A DNA stretch of 32,000 bases. It comes from Promethearchaeum syntrophicum (lineage in GTDB: Archaea > Asgardarchaeota > Lokiarchaeia > Sigyniarchaeales > Promethearchaeaceae). The DNA is taken from NCBI RefSeq assembly GCF_008000775.2, contig NZ_CP042905.2, forward strand, positions 3,390,001 to 3,422,000, read 5' to 3'. The notes below the pieces were generated by a model. It saw only the letters and a program-made list of their open reading frames with translations. It did not search any database and was not told the DNA's origin. The number at the start of each line of letters is the position of its first letter. Positions within the stretch are counted from its first letter, which is position 1. The position numbers and the translations under genes are program-made. Below are positions 26,788 to 32,000 of the stretch, piece after piece.

Positions 26788-27855
26788 CTAAACTTTATCT
26801 ACCCATCCAAAATGGTCTTTAACTAATCCGGATTGAATTCCCGTTATTTCATCAAATAATTGTTGACTCAGAGGTCCAACTTTAAAATCATTTAATATAT
26901 ATTCTTGATCTTGATAATAAATTGATCCAATTGGCGCAATGACTGCCGCAGTCCCCATTCCAAACATCTCACTTAATGTACCATCCTTTAAAGCTTGAAT
27001 TATTTCATCAATGCTTATTTTTCGCTCAGTAATTTTAATTCCCTTTTTTTTACAGATTTCAATTACGGAATTTCGAGTAATTCCTGGAAGTATTGCCCCA
27101 TCTAGTTCAGGGGTTATTACTTCATTGTTAATTACAAATGAAACATTCATAGCTCCAATTTCTGAAGCATATTTCATTTCTTTTGCATCCAACCATAATA
27201 CTTGTGAAAAACCCTTTTTTTCAGCATCAGTTGAAGCTTTTAACGATGCAGCGTAATTTCCTCCAGTTTTAGCATCTCCAATGCCTCCAGGACATGCTCG
27301 AACATGGAAAGTTTCAACAGCTATTTTTACAGGTTTAAAACCATTTTTAAAATATGCCCCTACAGGACTTAAAATTATGTAAAACAAATATTCATCAGCA
27401 GAATGAACACCGAGAAAAGGTTGACTTGCAATCATCGTAGGTCGGATGTATAATGCGGTTCCTTTTTCTTTAGGTACCCAAGCTTTTTCCAGTTTGAGCA
27501 ATTCTTTCAATGCATTGATAATGTAATCAATATCAAGTTTTGGCATACACATTTTTTCTGCGGAATTATTCATTCTCTTGAAATTCATATCTGGTCTAAA
27601 TAAATCAATAGTACCATCTTCATGACCATAGCATTTCATTCCTTCGAAAATTTCTTGTCCATAATGTAAAACACTTGCCGCAGGATCTAAACTTAGATTC
27701 CCATAGGGAATAATTTTCGCAGGGCCCCATCCTCCCTGTGATTTTTTATATTCCATAATTAACATGTGATCTGTAAAATTCTTGCCAAATCTTAACTTAG
27801 AATAATCTTTTGGGATTTCTTTCAAATTTTTTGCTTTAATTATTTCGATTTCCAA
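26788..27855 (-). CDS. ilvE: Branched-chain amino acid aminotransferase (class IV PLP), upstream paralog
   Basis: Same motif set: HYGQEIFEGMKCY, LYIRP, GIGDAKTGGNYAASL, GITR, GMGTAA. TTG start at 27855 with AGGTGA 6 nt upstream. Confidence 0.93.
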   Translation of the reverse strand: MEIEIIKAKNLKEIPKDYSKLRFGKNFTDHMLIMEYKKSQGGWGPAKIIPYGNLSLDPAASVLHYGQEIFEGMKCYGHEDGTIDLFRPDMNFKRMNNSAEKMCMPKLDIDYIINALKELLKLEKAWVPKEKGTALYIRPTMIASQPFLGVHSADEYLFYIILSPVGAYFKNGFKPVKIAVETFHVRACPGGIGDAKTGGNYAASLKASTDAEKKGFSQVLWLDAKEMKYASEIGAMNVSFVINNEVITPELDGAILPGITRNSVIEICKKKGIKITERKISIDEIIQALKDGTLSEMFGMGTAAVIAPIGSIYYQDQEYILNDFKVGPLSQQLFDEITGIQSGLVKDHFGWVDKV

Positions 27856-28020
27856 TTATTTCACCTTAGATAAATTAATAGTAAAAAGTCATTCATATTA
27901 ATTTCTGAAGGATAATTATAAAATATTTTGCATAGAAGAGAAGATTGGGAAAATAGTGGGAAAAAATTCAAGTAGATCGATTAGTTATAGATTTTGATTA
28001 ATAATAATGCTTAAAAATTG

Positions 28021-28028
28021 AGTCTTTT
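28021..28028. repeat. Left copy of the 8-bp direct repeat agtctttt flanking the IS
   Basis: Identical to 30199-30206. Confidence 0.6.
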
Positions 28029-28071
28029 TGACCATAGAAAAAAAATAATGAAAAAGAAAAAAAATTTAGCC

Positions 28072-28090
28072 TGGGGGTCGTTGACCCCCA
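28072..28090 (-). terminator. G+C-rich hairpin plus T8, downstream of the transposase stop
   Basis: tgggggtc (28072-28079) pairs with gaccccca (28083-28090) around a 3-nt loop. On the minus strand it is followed by a T8 run (plus-strand A8 at 28047-28054). Alternatively it is an IS right-end structure. Confidence 0.45.
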
Positions 28091-28097
28091 TTAAAGA

Positions 28098-29633
28098 CTA
28101 AATCTTATTTTTTTTTGAATCCACCTTAGTCCCTTGCAGTTCCACTACATTTGCCTTCCGTATCAATTGTTGGAAACCCTTTATCAAGAAGAAGCGACTT
28201 TTGGAGGTCATATATTGTGAGTTGGTAACCAAAAGTTGAGATATATCACGACGGAGACTGCGAGTTTGGGGAAATTCTAACATTGTACCGTGTTTGGTAT
28301 TTCGGCGCTGCAATCGCTGTATTTTCGCCTTGGTTTGTTCAAAAGTCGCATCATAGGAAACATTATTTACTAGGACTTGATATATAATGCGACTGAGTTT
28401 TTGAGCCACTCGCATCACGGCTTTCTTGTAAGGAAGTCCTCTTAAAACATACTGGCGATGAGCAAATTTAGCTAAGTCGCTTCCCTTGGCATAACCGTTG
28501 ACATATAACATGGCAATTTGTGATAAGGCGGTCCGAAGATGAGTATTAGTAAACCGATTGATATGACCGGGAGTAAATGTTCCTCCACTTTCCTTTATTT
28601 CAGGAACTACTCCGCAATATTTAGCAAAAGCCTTCCAATTGACAAACCGTCGAAAATCCCCTAATTCAGTAATTAAACGCAAGGCGGAAACTTGCCCTAC
28701 ACAGGGAATTCGGAGAAGTTGGAGGTACCAATATTCGAATTCAGCATCCTTAAGAATTTGTTTTTCGGTTTGCAATAAATATTGGGCAGCATTTGTTTCT
28801 GCTTGGAGATATTGGATGACTAATTGTCGCAAGTTGAACCGAGAAGTTTTGGGAAGTTCTATGTTAAAATAAGGCACATAATCATCTTGATGTTTCATCA
28901 AGCTGCTGATTGATCGCTTTTCTAACTGAGATGATTCTACCATTGCTTTAAATGCCCGTTTCATCGGACCTTCAGTTGTAATCATAAAATCGAGCAAGTG
29001 TAATTCCCATTCATGATGAAGATTAAGTTTATGCATGAAATTGACACTGCATAATACTCGATGAATACGATTCACGTATTTATTAGCTGCTTTCTTTGCA
29101 TGCTTGTAATTTCGCAGAGTATCCCGCAAATGGAAAAACTCGGGAGTACCGATATAACTTGGTCGTATTAATCGATCGTAGAAGCTAAGTTCTGCCATGC
29201 CTTGAGCATCTGCTTTATCATGTTTGTTTCCCAAATCGGTCAATTTACGGTGGACCAATAATGGATTCATTGCAATAATTTTCGTCTTTGAATTCGGAAA
29301 TGCATCTTCCAAGGCGTGATATACAGGTCGATGATATATGCCTGTGCATTCCATTAAATAATGGGAAACGGGAAGATATTTCTGTAAGAACTGGGTTAAT
29401 TCCTGCAATCCTTGAGGTTGATTTCGAAATTTATGGGTTCGAATTTGAATAATCAAGTTTTGCTCAGTTTGGGCCGCGACACTCACCACAATGTTCTCCT
29501 TATGAACATCTAAGCCGACCCCATATCGGACAATTTCAATTTCAGCACCAGATGAAGTAGATCCTTGAGAACTTCTCCTGGATTTTCGACGGGTTGTTTT
29601 TTTCCTAAAGCTTTTTGAGGGATTATGACTCAT
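28098..29633 (-). CDS. IS110-family DEDD (RuvC-like) transposase/recombinase, intact
   Basis: N-terminal DEDD blocks: GLDVHK, YLMECTGIYH, NKHDKADAQGMAEL. C-terminal IS116/IS110/IS902 domain: LLRIPCVGQVSALRLITELGDFRRF, FAKYCGVVPEIKESGG, GHINRFTNTHLRTAL. 511 aa, including a basic, Ser-rich N-terminal extension of about 30 aa. Confidence 0.9.
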   Translation of the reverse strand: MSHNPSKSFRKKTTRRKSRRSSQGSTSSGAEIEIVRYGVGLDVHKENIVVSVAAQTEQNLIIQIRTHKFRNQPQGLQELTQFLQKYLPVSHYLMECTGIYHRPVYHALEDAFPNSKTKIIAMNPLLVHRKLTDLGNKHDKADAQGMAELSFYDRLIRPSYIGTPEFFHLRDTLRNYKHAKKAANKYVNRIHRVLCSVNFMHKLNLHHEWELHLLDFMITTEGPMKRAFKAMVESSQLEKRSISSLMKHQDDYVPYFNIELPKTSRFNLRQLVIQYLQAETNAAQYLLQTEKQILKDAEFEYWYLQLLRIPCVGQVSALRLITELGDFRRFVNWKAFAKYCGVVPEIKESGGTFTPGHINRFTNTHLRTALSQIAMLYVNGYAKGSDLAKFAHRQYVLRGLPYKKAVMRVAQKLSRIIYQVLVNNVSYDATFEQTKAKIQRLQRRNTKHGTMLEFPQTRSLRRDISQLLVTNSQYMTSKSRFFLIKGFQQLIRKANVVELQGTKVDSKKNKI

Positions 29634-30198
29634 TGTAACTCACTGGATTCAGGTTGATTGAATCCATCACCGAGAGCAATTGTTCGTTGCAATTGCTCTC
29701 AATTCTTTCTTTTGGTCGGATTTTTTACCAATGAAAGGATTTTCGCCAATATCACACCATTTCACGCGGATCTCACAAGGGATTGGTCCTTACACGGTCT
29801 GTTCAGACCCTCAAAGCGGATGCAAAGCCAAAAAAGATCCCAAAAGGCTCTGCATCCAATGCTGTGAGGCGTGACAATATTTTATTAAATGACCACTCCC
29901 GTGATCACCTGGAAAAGAAGCTTTCTGTGGATCTTCCCTGTAAGTTTTCACGGAGGTTAGCCAAAGTCTTTGAAAGATGGGTGACCTCGAGCTTCAAATC
30001 CCAAGAATGGTCTTGGAATTCGGATCTCACGCAAAGGAATGACAAATTTTTTTTCGATATGATCGGGCGAACCGAGTCACATAAAAAGAACATTGTTCTC
30101 CAGTCCCCTTGGGATCCGCCTGCAACGAGTAGATTGGCGGTAATTATTATTTTGTCGGCAGATTATTTAATACTTTCGGAGTGCTAAGTGCTCCAAAA
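29634..30198 (-). ncRNA. Candidate bridge/guide RNA region (non-coding left end of the IS110-family element)
   Basis: There is no convincing ORF. Perfect stems are dense: 29644-29651/29659-29666, 29672-29682/29690-29700 and 30001-30006/30011-30016, plus 29818-29829/29846-29857 with one mismatch. Internal segments complement or copy the insertion junction (see findings). Orientation and exact ends are unknown. Confidence 0.4.
29644..29671. repeat. Inner copy of a 28-nt hairpin-containing inverted repeat
   Basis: tggattcaggttgattgaatccatcacc. Its last 12 nt (29660-29671) are the perfect reverse complement of 30207-30218, and its first 4 nt also match the partner. Confidence 0.7.
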
Positions 30199-30206
30199 AG
30201 TCTTTT
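30199..30206. repeat. Right copy of the 8-bp direct repeat agtctttt flanking the IS
   Basis: Identical to 28021-28028. It abuts the outer inverted-repeat copy. Confidence 0.6.
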
Positions 30207-30234
30207 GGTGATGGATTCCTAAGTATGAATTCCA
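30207..30234. repeat. Outer copy of the 28-nt hairpin-containing inverted repeat (presumed target-side palindrome)
   Basis: ggtgatggattcctaagtatgaattcca. It forms its own imperfect hairpin (tggattc / gaattcca with one bulge). It lies immediately outside the right direct repeat. Confidence 0.65.
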
Positions 30235-30395
30235 AAATTACACAAATTCAAAGAGCTTTCCTTTTCTATAAGTAAAAATCATGTTTAAGATGAAAATGGC
30301 GAAGGAGTTGAGTTGGAGAAATGACCTTCTTCAAAATAAAGCAAAAAATCGTAATTTAAGGAACTTCAAAAAAAAATATAATAAAAAATTAAATA

Positions 30396-31520
30396 TTATT
30401 CTTCTACAGCAGCAGTAACATTACCTTTTATTGATTTCATATGGGCATAATATTCTTCTCTCATTAATTCTAATGCTTTTACCAATACATTTGAATTTTG
30501 AGCCCGACTGCGGTATTGTTTTCGAATTGTGTCAACTAAATACCGGGGGTAGAATTTATCTATATAGAAATCACAAGTTAAGCAAAAGTATTCATTACCT
30601 TTGTCATCTTTAAACACTGCAACCATTTTTGTTTCCCAAAAGGATTTTAATACTCTATCAACATCGTCTACTCCCTTTTTCCGTAATTTCTCTAAATCAT
30701 TGCGAGTGACTATTGCTTCACGCATTAATTTTAACACTTCATAACATGCAGGATCCAATAATACTTTTTCAATGATTTCTATATTGTCTCGCTCACTTGG
30801 TGTATAATGTTTGAAGAAATTACGAATTTCAGAGGTATATTCGCCCACTAACGATTGAGGTAGGTGTCTATCAACGGGATCCTTTATTAATTCTGCAGGA
30901 GGGACTCTGAGAGCCATAATATCTTCAGAAAGAAATACTAAATCGGAAGACATGCCTTTGACAGAAGCAATTTTAGCAATCCCAAGTTTGACCATCGCAT
31001 TTAATATGTTTTCAATATCTACAAAACCTTCTTTGTACTGATCTTTTAACCATATAGAGATTTCAGATTTGGAAATGACACATTCTTCTCTGAGTCTCTC
31101 TAAAATCATACGTTTAATCTCGCTGTTTAGAAACATTCCATATCTCTGTTCTTCCTTTAGAGTTGGATAAACAGATAAGCGTTGGAATAAGGGAGGTAGA
31201 ATCGCATTCAAAGAATCCGACTCTAAATTCATAAGAATTTGACGTGTAATATCAGACAAACCCTCTTCATATACATCTCCATCTTCTTCCATGGATAGAA
31301 TCAGAATAACGTAAATTGCTGATTCTGGACCGGTATAATAGGAGGCCAGATTAACAGCGCCGGCTGCGATTGAAACTAACCCTGCTTCCCCAGTAAATTC
31401 GTGTTGGGAATAGAGTTGCATCAGTGTTTTTTCTTGAATTGTGGCTTCTTGTGGATAGGCCCCAAGTACTTCGACACCCATACGTTCATCCCAATGCATT
31501 ATGACTAATCCGGAAGGCAT
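30396..31520 (-). CDS. Hypothetical protein: longin/roadblock-like N-terminal domain plus two winged-helix-like modules
   Basis: 374 aa. The N-terminal ~100 aa (GLVIMHWDERMGVEVLGAYPQE ... AIYVILILSMEED ... ITRQILMNLE) show a beta-beta-alpha-beta-beta-alpha pattern. Two later segments resemble winged helices: SKSEISIWLK..LNAMVKLGIAKIASVKG and CYEVLKLMREAIVTRNDLEKL..MVAVFKDDKGNEYFCLT. A strong GGAGGG SD at 31529-31534 makes the coding call firm; the domain calls are by eye. Confidence 0.7.
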   Translation of the reverse strand: MPSGLVIMHWDERMGVEVLGAYPQEATIQEKTLMQLYSQHEFTGEAGLVSIAAGAVNLASYYTGPESAIYVILILSMEEDGDVYEEGLSDITRQILMNLESDSLNAILPPLFQRLSVYPTLKEEQRYGMFLNSEIKRMILERLREECVISKSEISIWLKDQYKEGFVDIENILNAMVKLGIAKIASVKGMSSDLVFLSEDIMALRVPPAELIKDPVDRHLPQSLVGEYTSEIRNFFKHYTPSERDNIEIIEKVLLDPACYEVLKLMREAIVTRNDLEKLRKKGVDDVDRVLKSFWETKMVAVFKDDKGNEYFCLTCDFYIDKFYPRYLVDTIRKQYRSRAQNSNVLVKALELMREEYYAHMKSIKGNVTAAVEE

Positions 31521-31522
31521 TT

Positions 31523-32000
31523 TTAGATCCCTCCTGTAGCTTCTTCACTAGATGATAATAATTCATCACTAGGAACAGATTCTTTACCAATTCCAAGAAT
31601 CTCATTTAAATTCAAATCAAGTAATTTCCAATACTCATCAAATTTCTCAATAATTTCTTCGTTAGCTGAAACAGAGATATTGTCATCAGATATGGTCTTC
31701 TTTCCAGAAATATCGGATAAAACTTTGTTAATCATCTTAACAAATGCAGGAATTCGAGCATTTTGCACAAGTTTATACCCAACTAAAGATCCAACTAAAA
31801 TTACTACTGCTCCTACTCCCAATAACAGATAGAAGGTTGGAAAACCATCAAAGATTTCATCCATTTTAATGGTGATTGAAATAGTTTCTGATACTTCAGA
31901 ATAATGATCAGCAGTAATGGTTAAAGTTCCTTGGAAGGTATTATCACGGAAGAATGCATTTATTTGTTCCTTAGAATAGCTAACATTAGCAGTATACACA
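31523..32000 (-). CDS. Single-pass membrane protein, 5'-truncated by the window edge (hypothetical)
   Basis: The ORF is open to the window end. It has one clear TM helix (FPTFYLLLGVGAVVILVGSLVGYKLV) and an acidic cytoplasmic tail. Its TAA stop lies 2 nt before the ATG of the downstream gene. Confidence 0.6.
   Translation of the reverse strand, partial: VYTANVSYSKEQINAFFRDNTFQGTLTITADHYSEVSETISITIKMDEIFDGFPTFYLLLGVGAVVILVGSLVGYKLVQNARIPAFVKMINKVLSDISGKKTISDDNISVSANEEIIEKFDEYWKLLDLNLNEILGIGKESVPSDELLSSSEEATGGI

Follow-up and report, generated by a model that had tools for sequence, protein, structure and literature searches.

A candidate bridge RNA in the long left end of an IS110-family element from the Asgard archaeon Promethearchaeum syntrophicum

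The window described here is a stretch of 32,000 nucleotides from the genome of Promethearchaeum syntrophicum (contig NZ_CP042905.2, positions 3,390,001 to 3,422,000 of the forward strand), and all coordinates below are those of the window, unless a locus is named. It carries on its minus strand an insertion element of the IS110 family, in which a recombinase gene is preceded by a long non-coding left end (LE) and followed by a short right end (RE). An initial annotation of this DNA proposed that the non-coding end next to the gene encodes a bridge RNA like that of IS621, and it named particular segments as guides. This proposal is partly supported by the present analysis, in that its general idea holds and its specifics do not. 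The element and its two main parts are as follows.

28063 to 30386, minus strand: IS110-family insertion element, delimited by copies at further sites and by the matching architecture in Lokiarchaeum ossiferum.
28098 to 29633, minus strand: transposase/recombinase of 511 amino acids with DEDD RuvC-like and Tnp (Ser) domains, recognised by profile and structure matches.
29634 to 30386, minus strand: non-coding LE of 753 nt, recognised in alignments of relatives at 55-91% amino acid identity.

The 511-residue protein matches the profiles PF01548 (1.6e-17) and PF02371 (6e-16), both above the cut-offs, and its best match among solved structures is the IS621 transposase (8wt6, E = 2.8e-11). The sequences GLDVH, MECTG, NKHDKADA and KESGG (the D, E, D, D and ESG motifs) align opposite the catalytic motifs of IS621. 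Judged by these matches, 28098-29633 encodes an IS110-family DEDD/Ser recombinase, as had been annotated. The DEDD domain is preceded by a basic N-terminal stretch (residues 1-38) and separated from the Tnp domain by a long linker, and ~80 C-terminal residues (about 431-511) extend past the part that aligns with IS621. A Lokiarchaeum homologue is called 'IS110 family RNA-guided transposase' by NCBI, on family membership alone.

The limits of the element are set by copies at three further sites (L001/L002, L013 and L007; L numbers denote loci and P numbers family proteins). An identical protein is encoded at a second locus (L001/L002), adjoining a homoserine dehydrogenase gene, and the DNA common to the window and this locus spans 28051-30388 at 99.8% identity, with divergence on both sides beyond. 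When L013 is considered, which has 89% nucleotide identity and occupies a third site, the similarity starts at the same base, 30388, and L007 supplies a fourth right junction. The complete genome of L. ossiferum has three copies with a matching architecture of ~2.34 kb, and relatives occur in Promethearchaeota/Lokiarchaeia genomes and in sediment metagenomes. The element is found in this way to extend over ~28063-30386 (~2.32 kb); its ends lie within T-runs, so that each is uncertain by a few bases. The RE comprises ~33 nt from the stop codon to GGCTAAA (28065), and a long non-coding LE upstream of the gene together with a short RE is the arrangement by which the IS110 group is recognised. The limits 28029-30206 given initially are replaced by those obtained from the copies and the 89% relative. 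The 8-nt sequence AGTCTTTT, which had been taken for a target duplication, has one copy inside the element (30199-30206) and the other outside it.

28021 to 28028, no strand assigned: left 'direct repeat' copy of the initial annotation, here flanking DNA with a chance 8-mer match.

The family comprises 57 proteins at E <= 1e-30, and many of its members (P0005, P0007, P0010, P0015-P0017 and others) come from contigs about as long as the element itself (2.2-2.4 kb), which suggests multi-copy repeats collapsed by assemblers. Two contig pairs (L050 and L055, L013 and L043) have a common left flank and differing right flanks; these could be assembly chimeras across the repeat, or rearrangements between copies.

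The LE has the properties of a structured RNA. Between the transposase ATG (29633) and ~30220 the GC content is 43%, compared with 32% for the window, and the minimum free energy of the minus strand is -213.9 kcal/mol, compared with -157.4 +/- 6.6 for shuffled sequences (z = -8.6). Inverted repeats were evaluated against dinucleotide shuffles of the 601-nt stretch, using non-overlapping arms, and two stems of at least 11 bp are seen in 0 of 300 shuffles. This bears out the initial description of the region as strongly structured. The whole LE can be aligned among elements whose transposases are 55-91% identical, and its core is still recognisable at 37-45% transposase identity (L009, L015, L045, L046 and the P0038 type). 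No open reading frame (ORF) of the LE is conserved in strand, frame or position across the aligned relatives, which is also in agreement with the initial annotation, where no credible ORF was seen; an antisense ORF of 134 amino acids (29783-30187) was considered as an LE gene and is likewise not conserved.

Consensus folds were made from 6, 10 and 12 sequences, and the 250-nt core was folded for 12 elements. Covariation was tested in a 10-sequence alignment, where the consensus structure and the donor pairing described below amount to 96 pairs. Standard pairs occupy 95.4% of the cells, compared with 35-47% in controls with the 3' partners displaced by 1-3 columns, and both sides have changed in 37 pairs, compared with 10-16 in these slid controls; 0 of 500 column shuffles attain the observed pairing values. 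The covariation of stems across homologous elements, which had been proposed as a check, is thus present. Many G-U pairs are specific to the transposase-sense strand (UG in 10/10 sequences at columns 412/530, GU in 9/10 at columns 316/337), and this argues for a structure of transposase-sense RNA over a DNA palindrome. Most likely, sense transcription of the 753-nt LE yields a large structured RNA. The initial suggestion of a structured sense-strand RNA with a bridge-RNA layout, encoded by the non-coding end upstream of the gene, is supported by both the fold and the covariation. Its overall domain and the hairpins nearest the gene are the following.

29660 to 30218, minus strand: conserved structured RNA domain of ~560 nt (z = -8.6, P ~0.007, covariation), closed in this lineage by the 12-bp complementarity 30207-30218/29660-29671.
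29672 to 29700, minus strand: conserved hairpin, a perfect 11 bp in the window (helix 15; 5/11 pairs changed on both sides, 96% paired).
29639 to 29665, minus strand: local hairpin (29645-29665; helix 16, 2 covarying pairs, 99% paired), then the Shine-Dalgarno-like GUGAG (29639-29643), 5 nt before the ATG.

The 12-nt complementarity between 29660-29671 and 30207-30218 had been read as a guide matching its flank. The complementarity itself is real and unusual, a perfect 12-nt inverted repeat being reached in ~0.7% of dinucleotide shuffles of the 601-nt stretch, and the guide-to-flank reading of it fails, since 30207-30218 lies inside the element and is unchanged in other copies. In the relatives, 12/12 positions pair in the window, 11/12 in L013, 12/12 (with two G-U pairs) in L037 and 10/12 in L038, and the helix is missing in the Lokiarchaeum group. 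It is at best a lineage-specific long-range helix that would close the ~560-nt domain. The hairpin 29645-29665 overlaps the 3' arm of this helix, so that the two are mutually exclusive, and possibly they alternate. A C/D-box or K-turn made of GUGAUGG...CUGA near 29645-29671 was also considered; this motif is missing in Lokiarchaeum-type sequences and was dropped.

Further upstream, the core RNA (29866-30101, minus strand) has in the 12-element fold two internal loops with a hairpin between them. In IS621, the first loop of the bridge RNA binds the target and the second binds the donor, and either loop reads the DNA left of the core on the bottom strand, with its 5' strand, and the DNA right of the core on the top strand, with its 3' strand (PMC11208160). 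The corresponding parts of the RNA described here are listed in the order in which they are transcribed, each loop being followed by its strands.

30036 to 30101, minus strand: loop 1, of the target-binding-loop type (helices 5 and 6, 98% paired).
30082 to 30091, minus strand: 5' strand of loop 1, GUUCUUUUUA, the candidate left target guide and the most variable strand among relatives.
30043 to 30056, minus strand: 3' strand of loop 1, CGAAAAAAAAUUUG, holding the putative right target guide GAAAAAAAA (30047-30055).
29989 to 30028, minus strand: inter-loop hairpin (helices 7 and 8), with 13/14 pairs changed on both sides, the strongest covariation of the RNA.
29866 to 29988, minus strand: loop 2, of the donor-binding-loop type (helices 9-12).
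29964 to 29983, minus strand: 5' strand of loop 2, CACCCAUCUUUCAAAGACUU, 20 nt, the expected place of a left donor guide and nearly invariant in the family.
29880 to 29887, minus strand: 3' strand of loop 2, with the putative right donor guide UAAUAAAA (helix 1: 100% paired, 2 covarying columns).

Loop 1 consists of the closing stem GGAGAACAAU/UUUGUCAUUCC, a 5' strand of 10-11 nt, an inner hairpin (30058-30081) and an A-rich 3' strand. Loop 2 consists of the closing stem GAGGU (29984-29988)/GCCUC (29866-29870), an inner stem (29958-29963/29890-29895) and a variable apical part. For the donor loop, the initial annotation had paired gaggt at 29984-29988 with acctc at 29953-29957; the first of these is indeed the 5' half of the closing stem, but the second is not conserved, and the partner is GCCUC. 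The core 29866-30101 appears to act as a bridge RNA.

On the donor side, the 8 nt before the conserved UAUUG motif of loop 2 are an exact reverse complement of the 8 nt with which the element begins. This is observed at 16 loci, in six variants, with a match of 7/8 in L009.

First element bases TTTTATTA, loop 2 segment UAAUAAAA (window type).
First element bases TTTAATTA, loop 2 segment UAAUUAAA.
First element bases TTTAATTG, loop 2 segment CAAUUAAA.
First element bases TTTCGTG, loop 2 segment CACGAAA.
First element bases TTTCATAA, loop 2 segment UUAUGAAA.
First element bases TTTTGTAT, loop 2 segment AUACAAAA.

The two donor halves of the window element are located as follows.

30379 to 30386, minus strand: right donor half, the presumed core TT plus TTATTA, being the first bases of the element, where the flanks of the copies diverge; complementary to 29880-29887.
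28065 to 28089, minus strand: end of the RE, with the GC hairpin GGGGGTCAACGACCCCC (28073-28089) followed by AGGCTAAA (28065-28072), the left donor half.

The assignment of 29880-29887 as right donor guide is well supported by these matches. All right junctions show T's after the left donor half, and the proposal of TT as the core rests on the TT(T) that opens all right donor halves. Several forms of the left donor half occur (GGCTAAA, GCTAAAC, GGCTAAGG and GCTACA), and the arms of the GC hairpin in the RE covary, being GGGGAGC/GCTCCCC in L040 and CGAGAG/CTCTCG in L009.

On the target side, loop 1 has as its 3' strand an A-run that varies from element to element in its length and its neighbours, and the reverse complement of this strand matches the right junction of the same element. 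Cognate combinations score 89, compared with 69.7 +/- 4.4 for permuted ones, and 0 of 20000 permutations are as high. The length of the A-run in the RNA tracks the length of the T-run at the right junction, as seen in the following matches.

Window and L038: A8 in the RNA, T8C; junction match AAATTTTTTTTC.
L013 and L043: GAGAAAAA in the RNA, T5CT; junction match AAATTTTTCT.
L040: AGAAAAAAG in the RNA, CT6CT; junction match AAACTTTTTTCT.
L044: AGAAAAAAA in the RNA, T7CT; junction match AAATTTTTTTCT.
L041: junction match AAACTTTTTTTT.
L015: AUAAAAAA in the RNA, T6AT; junction match TTTTTTAT.
L045: AUGAAAAAA in the RNA, T6CAT; junction match ATTTTTTCAT.
L046: AGAAAAAAA in the RNA, T7C; junction match ATTTTTTTC.

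The segment 30047-30055 therefore has the properties expected of a right target guide, an assignment that is well supported by this comparison of sequences. The corresponding host DNA at the window element was located by comparing right flanks.

28056 to 28064, minus strand: TTTTTTTTC beside the RE, the presumed core TT plus the right target half (host DNA).

The P0038 type is informative about the origin of the T-run. Its ten loci agree fully in the transposase (100% identity) and in the RNA loops, and they have seven distinct left and eight distinct right flanks. After the invariant GGCTAAAG the right flanks are T8A (four sites), T9A, TTTCTTTTA, T8G and T8C, the flank TTTCTTTTA being present in two independent assemblies. 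The T-run itself thus varies among copies with identical transposases, with TTTCTTTT or T9 in place of T8, and since the tract differs between identical elements, it comes from the target, that is, from host DNA. Within this type, the junction sequences suggest that the guide UAAAAAAAA selects the target tract, with no more than one mismatch. The three L. ossiferum copies are inserted at TTAA|T8, TTTA|T8 and TTAA|T8, which is consistent with their loop 1 strands GUUAAUUUU and A8. In L002 (~510-525), the A-run of the putative right target guide is one base longer than in the window (A9, against A8 at 30047-30054), and both copies adjoin T8C.

The left donor half ends in AAA, to which the three bases UUU (30044-30046) after the A-run are complementary; L040 and L041 have one additional G-C pair here. 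At the corresponding position of the IS621 RNA a handshake guide has been described (PMC11208158). It is possible that 30044-30046 is a candidate of the same kind, and this point is given little weight because the UUU bases are also part of the loop-closing stem.

The fit of the other strand of loop 1 is looser. Across the family, the match of the 5' strand to the left flanks scores 79, compared with 69.2 +/- 3.3 for permuted combinations (p = 0.003), and the matches at individual loci are these.

L009: 9/10, AATAATTTC.
L003: 8/10, TTCCTTTA.
L006: 8/10.
L004 and L008: 7/10, TTAATTT.
L046: 7/10, TACTTTT.
Window and L002: 6/10, all T's.

The fit is thus good in L009, L003 and L006, and it is good in L. 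ossiferum too. The seven left flanks of the P0038 type fit the candidate guide loosely, and in most of them the U-run alone matches. The family-wide value weakly supports 30082-30091 as a left target guide; it seems that either the specificity for the left flank is weak or the register used is wrong. In L009 (2203-2250), the first ~23 nt of the LE (TTTCGTGATATTTTTTACAATATT) are tandemly duplicated, and the candidate left target guide fits the DNA that flanks the outer of the two copies. A polypurine run at 29703-29715 was tried as a second target-binding strand and rejected, its matches to T/C-rich flanks being of low complexity and inconsistent across types.

The reconstructed targets consist of a few A/T-rich bases and T8-T11, usually with C or A next. 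At all sites with enough upstream sequence (nine loci), a co-oriented ORF ends with its stop codon 0-61 nt before the insertion, and the upstream gene calls are co-oriented too at L045, L046 and most P0038-type loci. In the window, the insertion adjoins 30389-30398 and the upstream ORF is 30396-31520. The loci with such sites are, besides the window, L002, L013, L038, L042, L004, L005, L008, L006, L045, L046 and L049-L057. Of the twelve TTTTTTTTC sites in the window, eleven are on the minus strand, and the ORFs examined at 26788-31999 are likewise on this strand. The sequence T10C is not present in the window except for the site reconstructed at the insertion point.

If the IS621 precedent is followed for the pairing of RNA with DNA, the position of the TT core, the circular intermediate and the chemistry of strand exchange, then loop 2 would hold the donor and loop 1 the target, the 5' strand of loop 1 (30082-30091) pairing with the bottom strand just left of the T-tract. 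The circle junction would read GGCTAAA-TT-TTATTATA, and the target in the window before insertion would have been TATTTAA-T10-CTTTTTCATTA. Recombination at the TT core inside the T-run would place the element between the host stop codon and the oligo-T tract. Archaeal RNA polymerase terminates at oligo-T, and on this general knowledge the T-tract is presumably the terminator of the host gene. The T9 run of the element near the start of the LE (30367-30375) could end the host transcript in its place, and the host T-tract would follow the RE hairpin of the transposase mRNA and end that mRNA.

The two ends of the element are also related to each other by a sub-terminal inverted repeat.

30365 to 30378, minus strand: LE arm of a 14-bp sub-terminal inverted repeat, whose partner 28106-28119 is 100% complementary.

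The LE arm is 9-22 nt from the left end, and the RE arm overlaps the stop codon of the transposase, ~41 nt before the right end. In relatives (L013, L037, L044, L049 and others) the repeat has 10-16 bp and other sequences, and it thus covaries. When the ends are joined as in a hypothetical circle junction (28065-28125 plus 30355-30386), a long hairpin of -34 to -43 kcal/mol is predicted for the window, L049 and L004 types, in which the inverted repeat, the covarying AAGATTTAG/CTAAATTTT pairing (left donor half plus core) and the GC hairpin are stacked. In the integrated state, the inner part of this hairpin folds alone, with the host T-run after it.

Taken together, this is probably an Asgard IS110 element in which the core of the LE RNA works as a bridge RNA. 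Several observations weigh against this interpretation. The candidate guides are low-complexity A/U runs in a genome of 32% GC, and because single matches of this kind carry little weight, the guide argument rests on the covariation across elements. The specific bases GUUC of the window's left target guide match neither of its known sites (TTAA.. and CAAG..), where the U-run alone matches. Although the left donor half takes several forms, hardly any change is seen in the 5' strand of loop 2. When this strand is compared with the left donor half in sense and antisense orientation, with bulges of 2-3 nt allowed, nothing covaries, and against GGCTAAA+TT it matches 4-5/10 positions in any register tried by eye; other LE segments considered as left donor guide (UUAAAU near 30165 and GGCUAA at 29958-29963) do not covary either. 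The junction is a homopolymer and no empty site was recovered, an exact-protein look-up of the upstream neighbour having given no match, and the exact crossover and the TT core are therefore inferred. The scan of Rfam proposed as a check (release 15) gave no family at E <= 10 in 27500-30800 nor at gathering score anywhere in the window; the weak matches to SNORD51, caiA and MIR2118 (E 5-9) are noise.

It could be argued that the LE is merely a structured 5' leader of the transposase mRNA, acting in stability, translation or processing, and that the complementarities are intramolecular helices or coincidences between A/T-runs. Two covarying hairpins (helices 15 and 16) directly before GUGAG and the ATG, one of which competes with the long-range 12-bp helix and looks regulatory, would suit such a leader, as would ~300 nt of conserved structure without counterpart in the 177-nt IS621 RNA. 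However, IS621 has exactly this order of loops and this strand polarity in both matches, and the IS110 recombinase has intact catalytic motifs. Moreover, the first 8 nt of the element lie upstream of the T9 run, which would stop archaeal transcription before the leader, and the T-run complementary to loop 1 varies between identical-element copies, which places it in host DNA, outside any transcript of the element. A leader function alone is for these reasons distinctly unlikely, and a regulatory role of the 3' hairpins is compatible with a bridge RNA too. The same variation bears on another explanation, in which the T-run of the right junction is element DNA (left donor half). On this view, loop 1 would use its A-run to recognise the right end of its own element, whether in DNA or in the U-tail of the transposase mRNA, and the target would be chosen otherwise, for example by protein recognition or DNA structure. 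The T-run has the same length within several types (T8 in all three L. ossiferum copies, T8CT5 in the two copies of the window type), the complementarity runs on into the AAA of GGCTAAA, which is certainly element DNA, and the RE and the start of the LE fold as one long hairpin. Yet copies with identical transposases have TTTCTTTT (in two independent assemblies) or T9 instead of T8, and L037 and L039 deviate as well. In the IS621 geometry, the 3' strand of the loop reads the top strand right of the core, which suits a right target half and not a left donor half, and pairing with the end of the left donor half beside the target guide is what handshake guides do. An element-owned T-run is accordingly considered unlikely.

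The specific model of the initial annotation, with 29660-29671 and 29708-29716 as target guides and 29953-29988 as a mimic of the circle junction, is extremely improbable. Its strings all exist: 29660-29671 is complementary to 30207-30218, 29708-29716 equals 30201-30209, the hairpin is present, and so are ccaaagtcttt, tgacc and the gaggt/acctc pair; the 12-nt complementarity is moreover unlikely by chance. The guide-flank reading is rejected because both partners sit inside the element, and copies at other loci carry 30207-30218 and 30199-30206 unchanged. The 9-nt direct copy is at chance level, as a direct repeat of at least 9 nt occurs in 62% of the shuffles and 18 such families occur in 2.5 kb. 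The hairpin 29672-29700, on whose sides the guides were placed, is real, conserved and covarying, and only the guides fall away. The ccaaagtcttt block hardly changes across ten aligned relatives, whatever their unrelated flanks, and the circle junction that it was thought to resemble (30193-30206 joined to 28029-28033) was built from the wrong ends, 28021-28033 being outside the element.

The bridge RNA reading can be extended to the clade, although only tentatively, and the following is better regarded as a possibility than as an expectation. There may be an IS110 clade, largely Asgard, with a bridge RNA of ~3x size that is programmed for oligo-T behind a co-oriented gene and borrows the terminator of the host, and in which the extra RNA domains and the enlarged recombinase are functional, for example in regulation, processing or binding of an archaeal cofactor. 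If this is true, the large-RNA oligo-T clade is a distinct archaeal branch of RNA-guided recombinases, and it bears on the proposed evolutionary link between IS110 and Nop5 (bioRxiv 10.1101/2024.06.21.599552). The apparent preference for oligo-T after genes would be a 'safe site' strategy where oligo-T is the terminator. Bridge RNAs have so far been characterised in bacterial elements, and a literature search found no description of one from an archaeon; the present analysis gives a map of the loops, their reading strands and the target for an Asgard element. By this analysis, the system would accommodate a far larger RNA scaffold together with an enlarged recombinase, which is of possible interest to mobile-element biologists and for the mining of bridge recombinases for new specificities.

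When compared with IS621 (Durrant et al. 2024, PMC11208160; Hiraizumi et al. 2024, PMC11208158), the element is alike in its DEDD and Ser recombinase, in the RNA encoded in a long LE upstream of the gene, in the short RE and in the two internal loops, target then donor, the 3' strand of each being complementary to the top strand right of the core; there is also the possible handshake pairing beside the target guide. The sizes differ: the LE has 753 nt and the RNA domain ~560 nt here, whereas the RE-LE of IS621 has 298 bp and its RNA 177 nt, and the recombinase has 511 amino acids, with ~38 N-terminal and ~80 C-terminal extra residues, whereas the solved IS621 chain has 328 residues. Unlike that of IS621, the RNA has a covarying hairpin separating its two loops and additional conserved domains on either side, and the LE comparison identified no left donor guide. 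The core is probably TT here and CT in IS621, and the target is an oligo-T tract behind genes here and a repetitive extragenic palindromic (REP) element in IS621. The host being an archaeon, a promoter at the junction, if there is any, would need to be of the TATA/BRE (transcription factor B recognition element) type. Among the other bacterial members of the family, two IS110-family elements are known from Pseudomonas putida; ISPpu9 is reported to insert into repetitive extragenic palindromic sequences, and all mapped insertions of ISPpu10 are reported to be in copies of one conserved intergenic sequence (PMC12288879; bioRxiv 10.64898/2026.03.19.712850). As far as described there, these bacterial elements differ from the present one in using specific repeated targets, whereas here the target is a generic oligo-T tract.

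Sub-terminal inverted repeats of 2-3 bp are described for the IS110 group and of 7-17 bp for the IS1111 group (PMC11208160). The repeat described here has 14 bp (10-16 bp in relatives) and departs from the IS110 group in this respect. The element resembles the IS1111/seekRNA type in its recombinase family and in its long sub-terminal inverted repeats, but there the guide RNA is encoded in a long RE downstream of the gene, whereas here the RE has ~33 nt and the RNA lies upstream. As judged by sequence, the clade mixes the LE RNA of the IS110 group with a long inverted repeat of the IS1111 kind.

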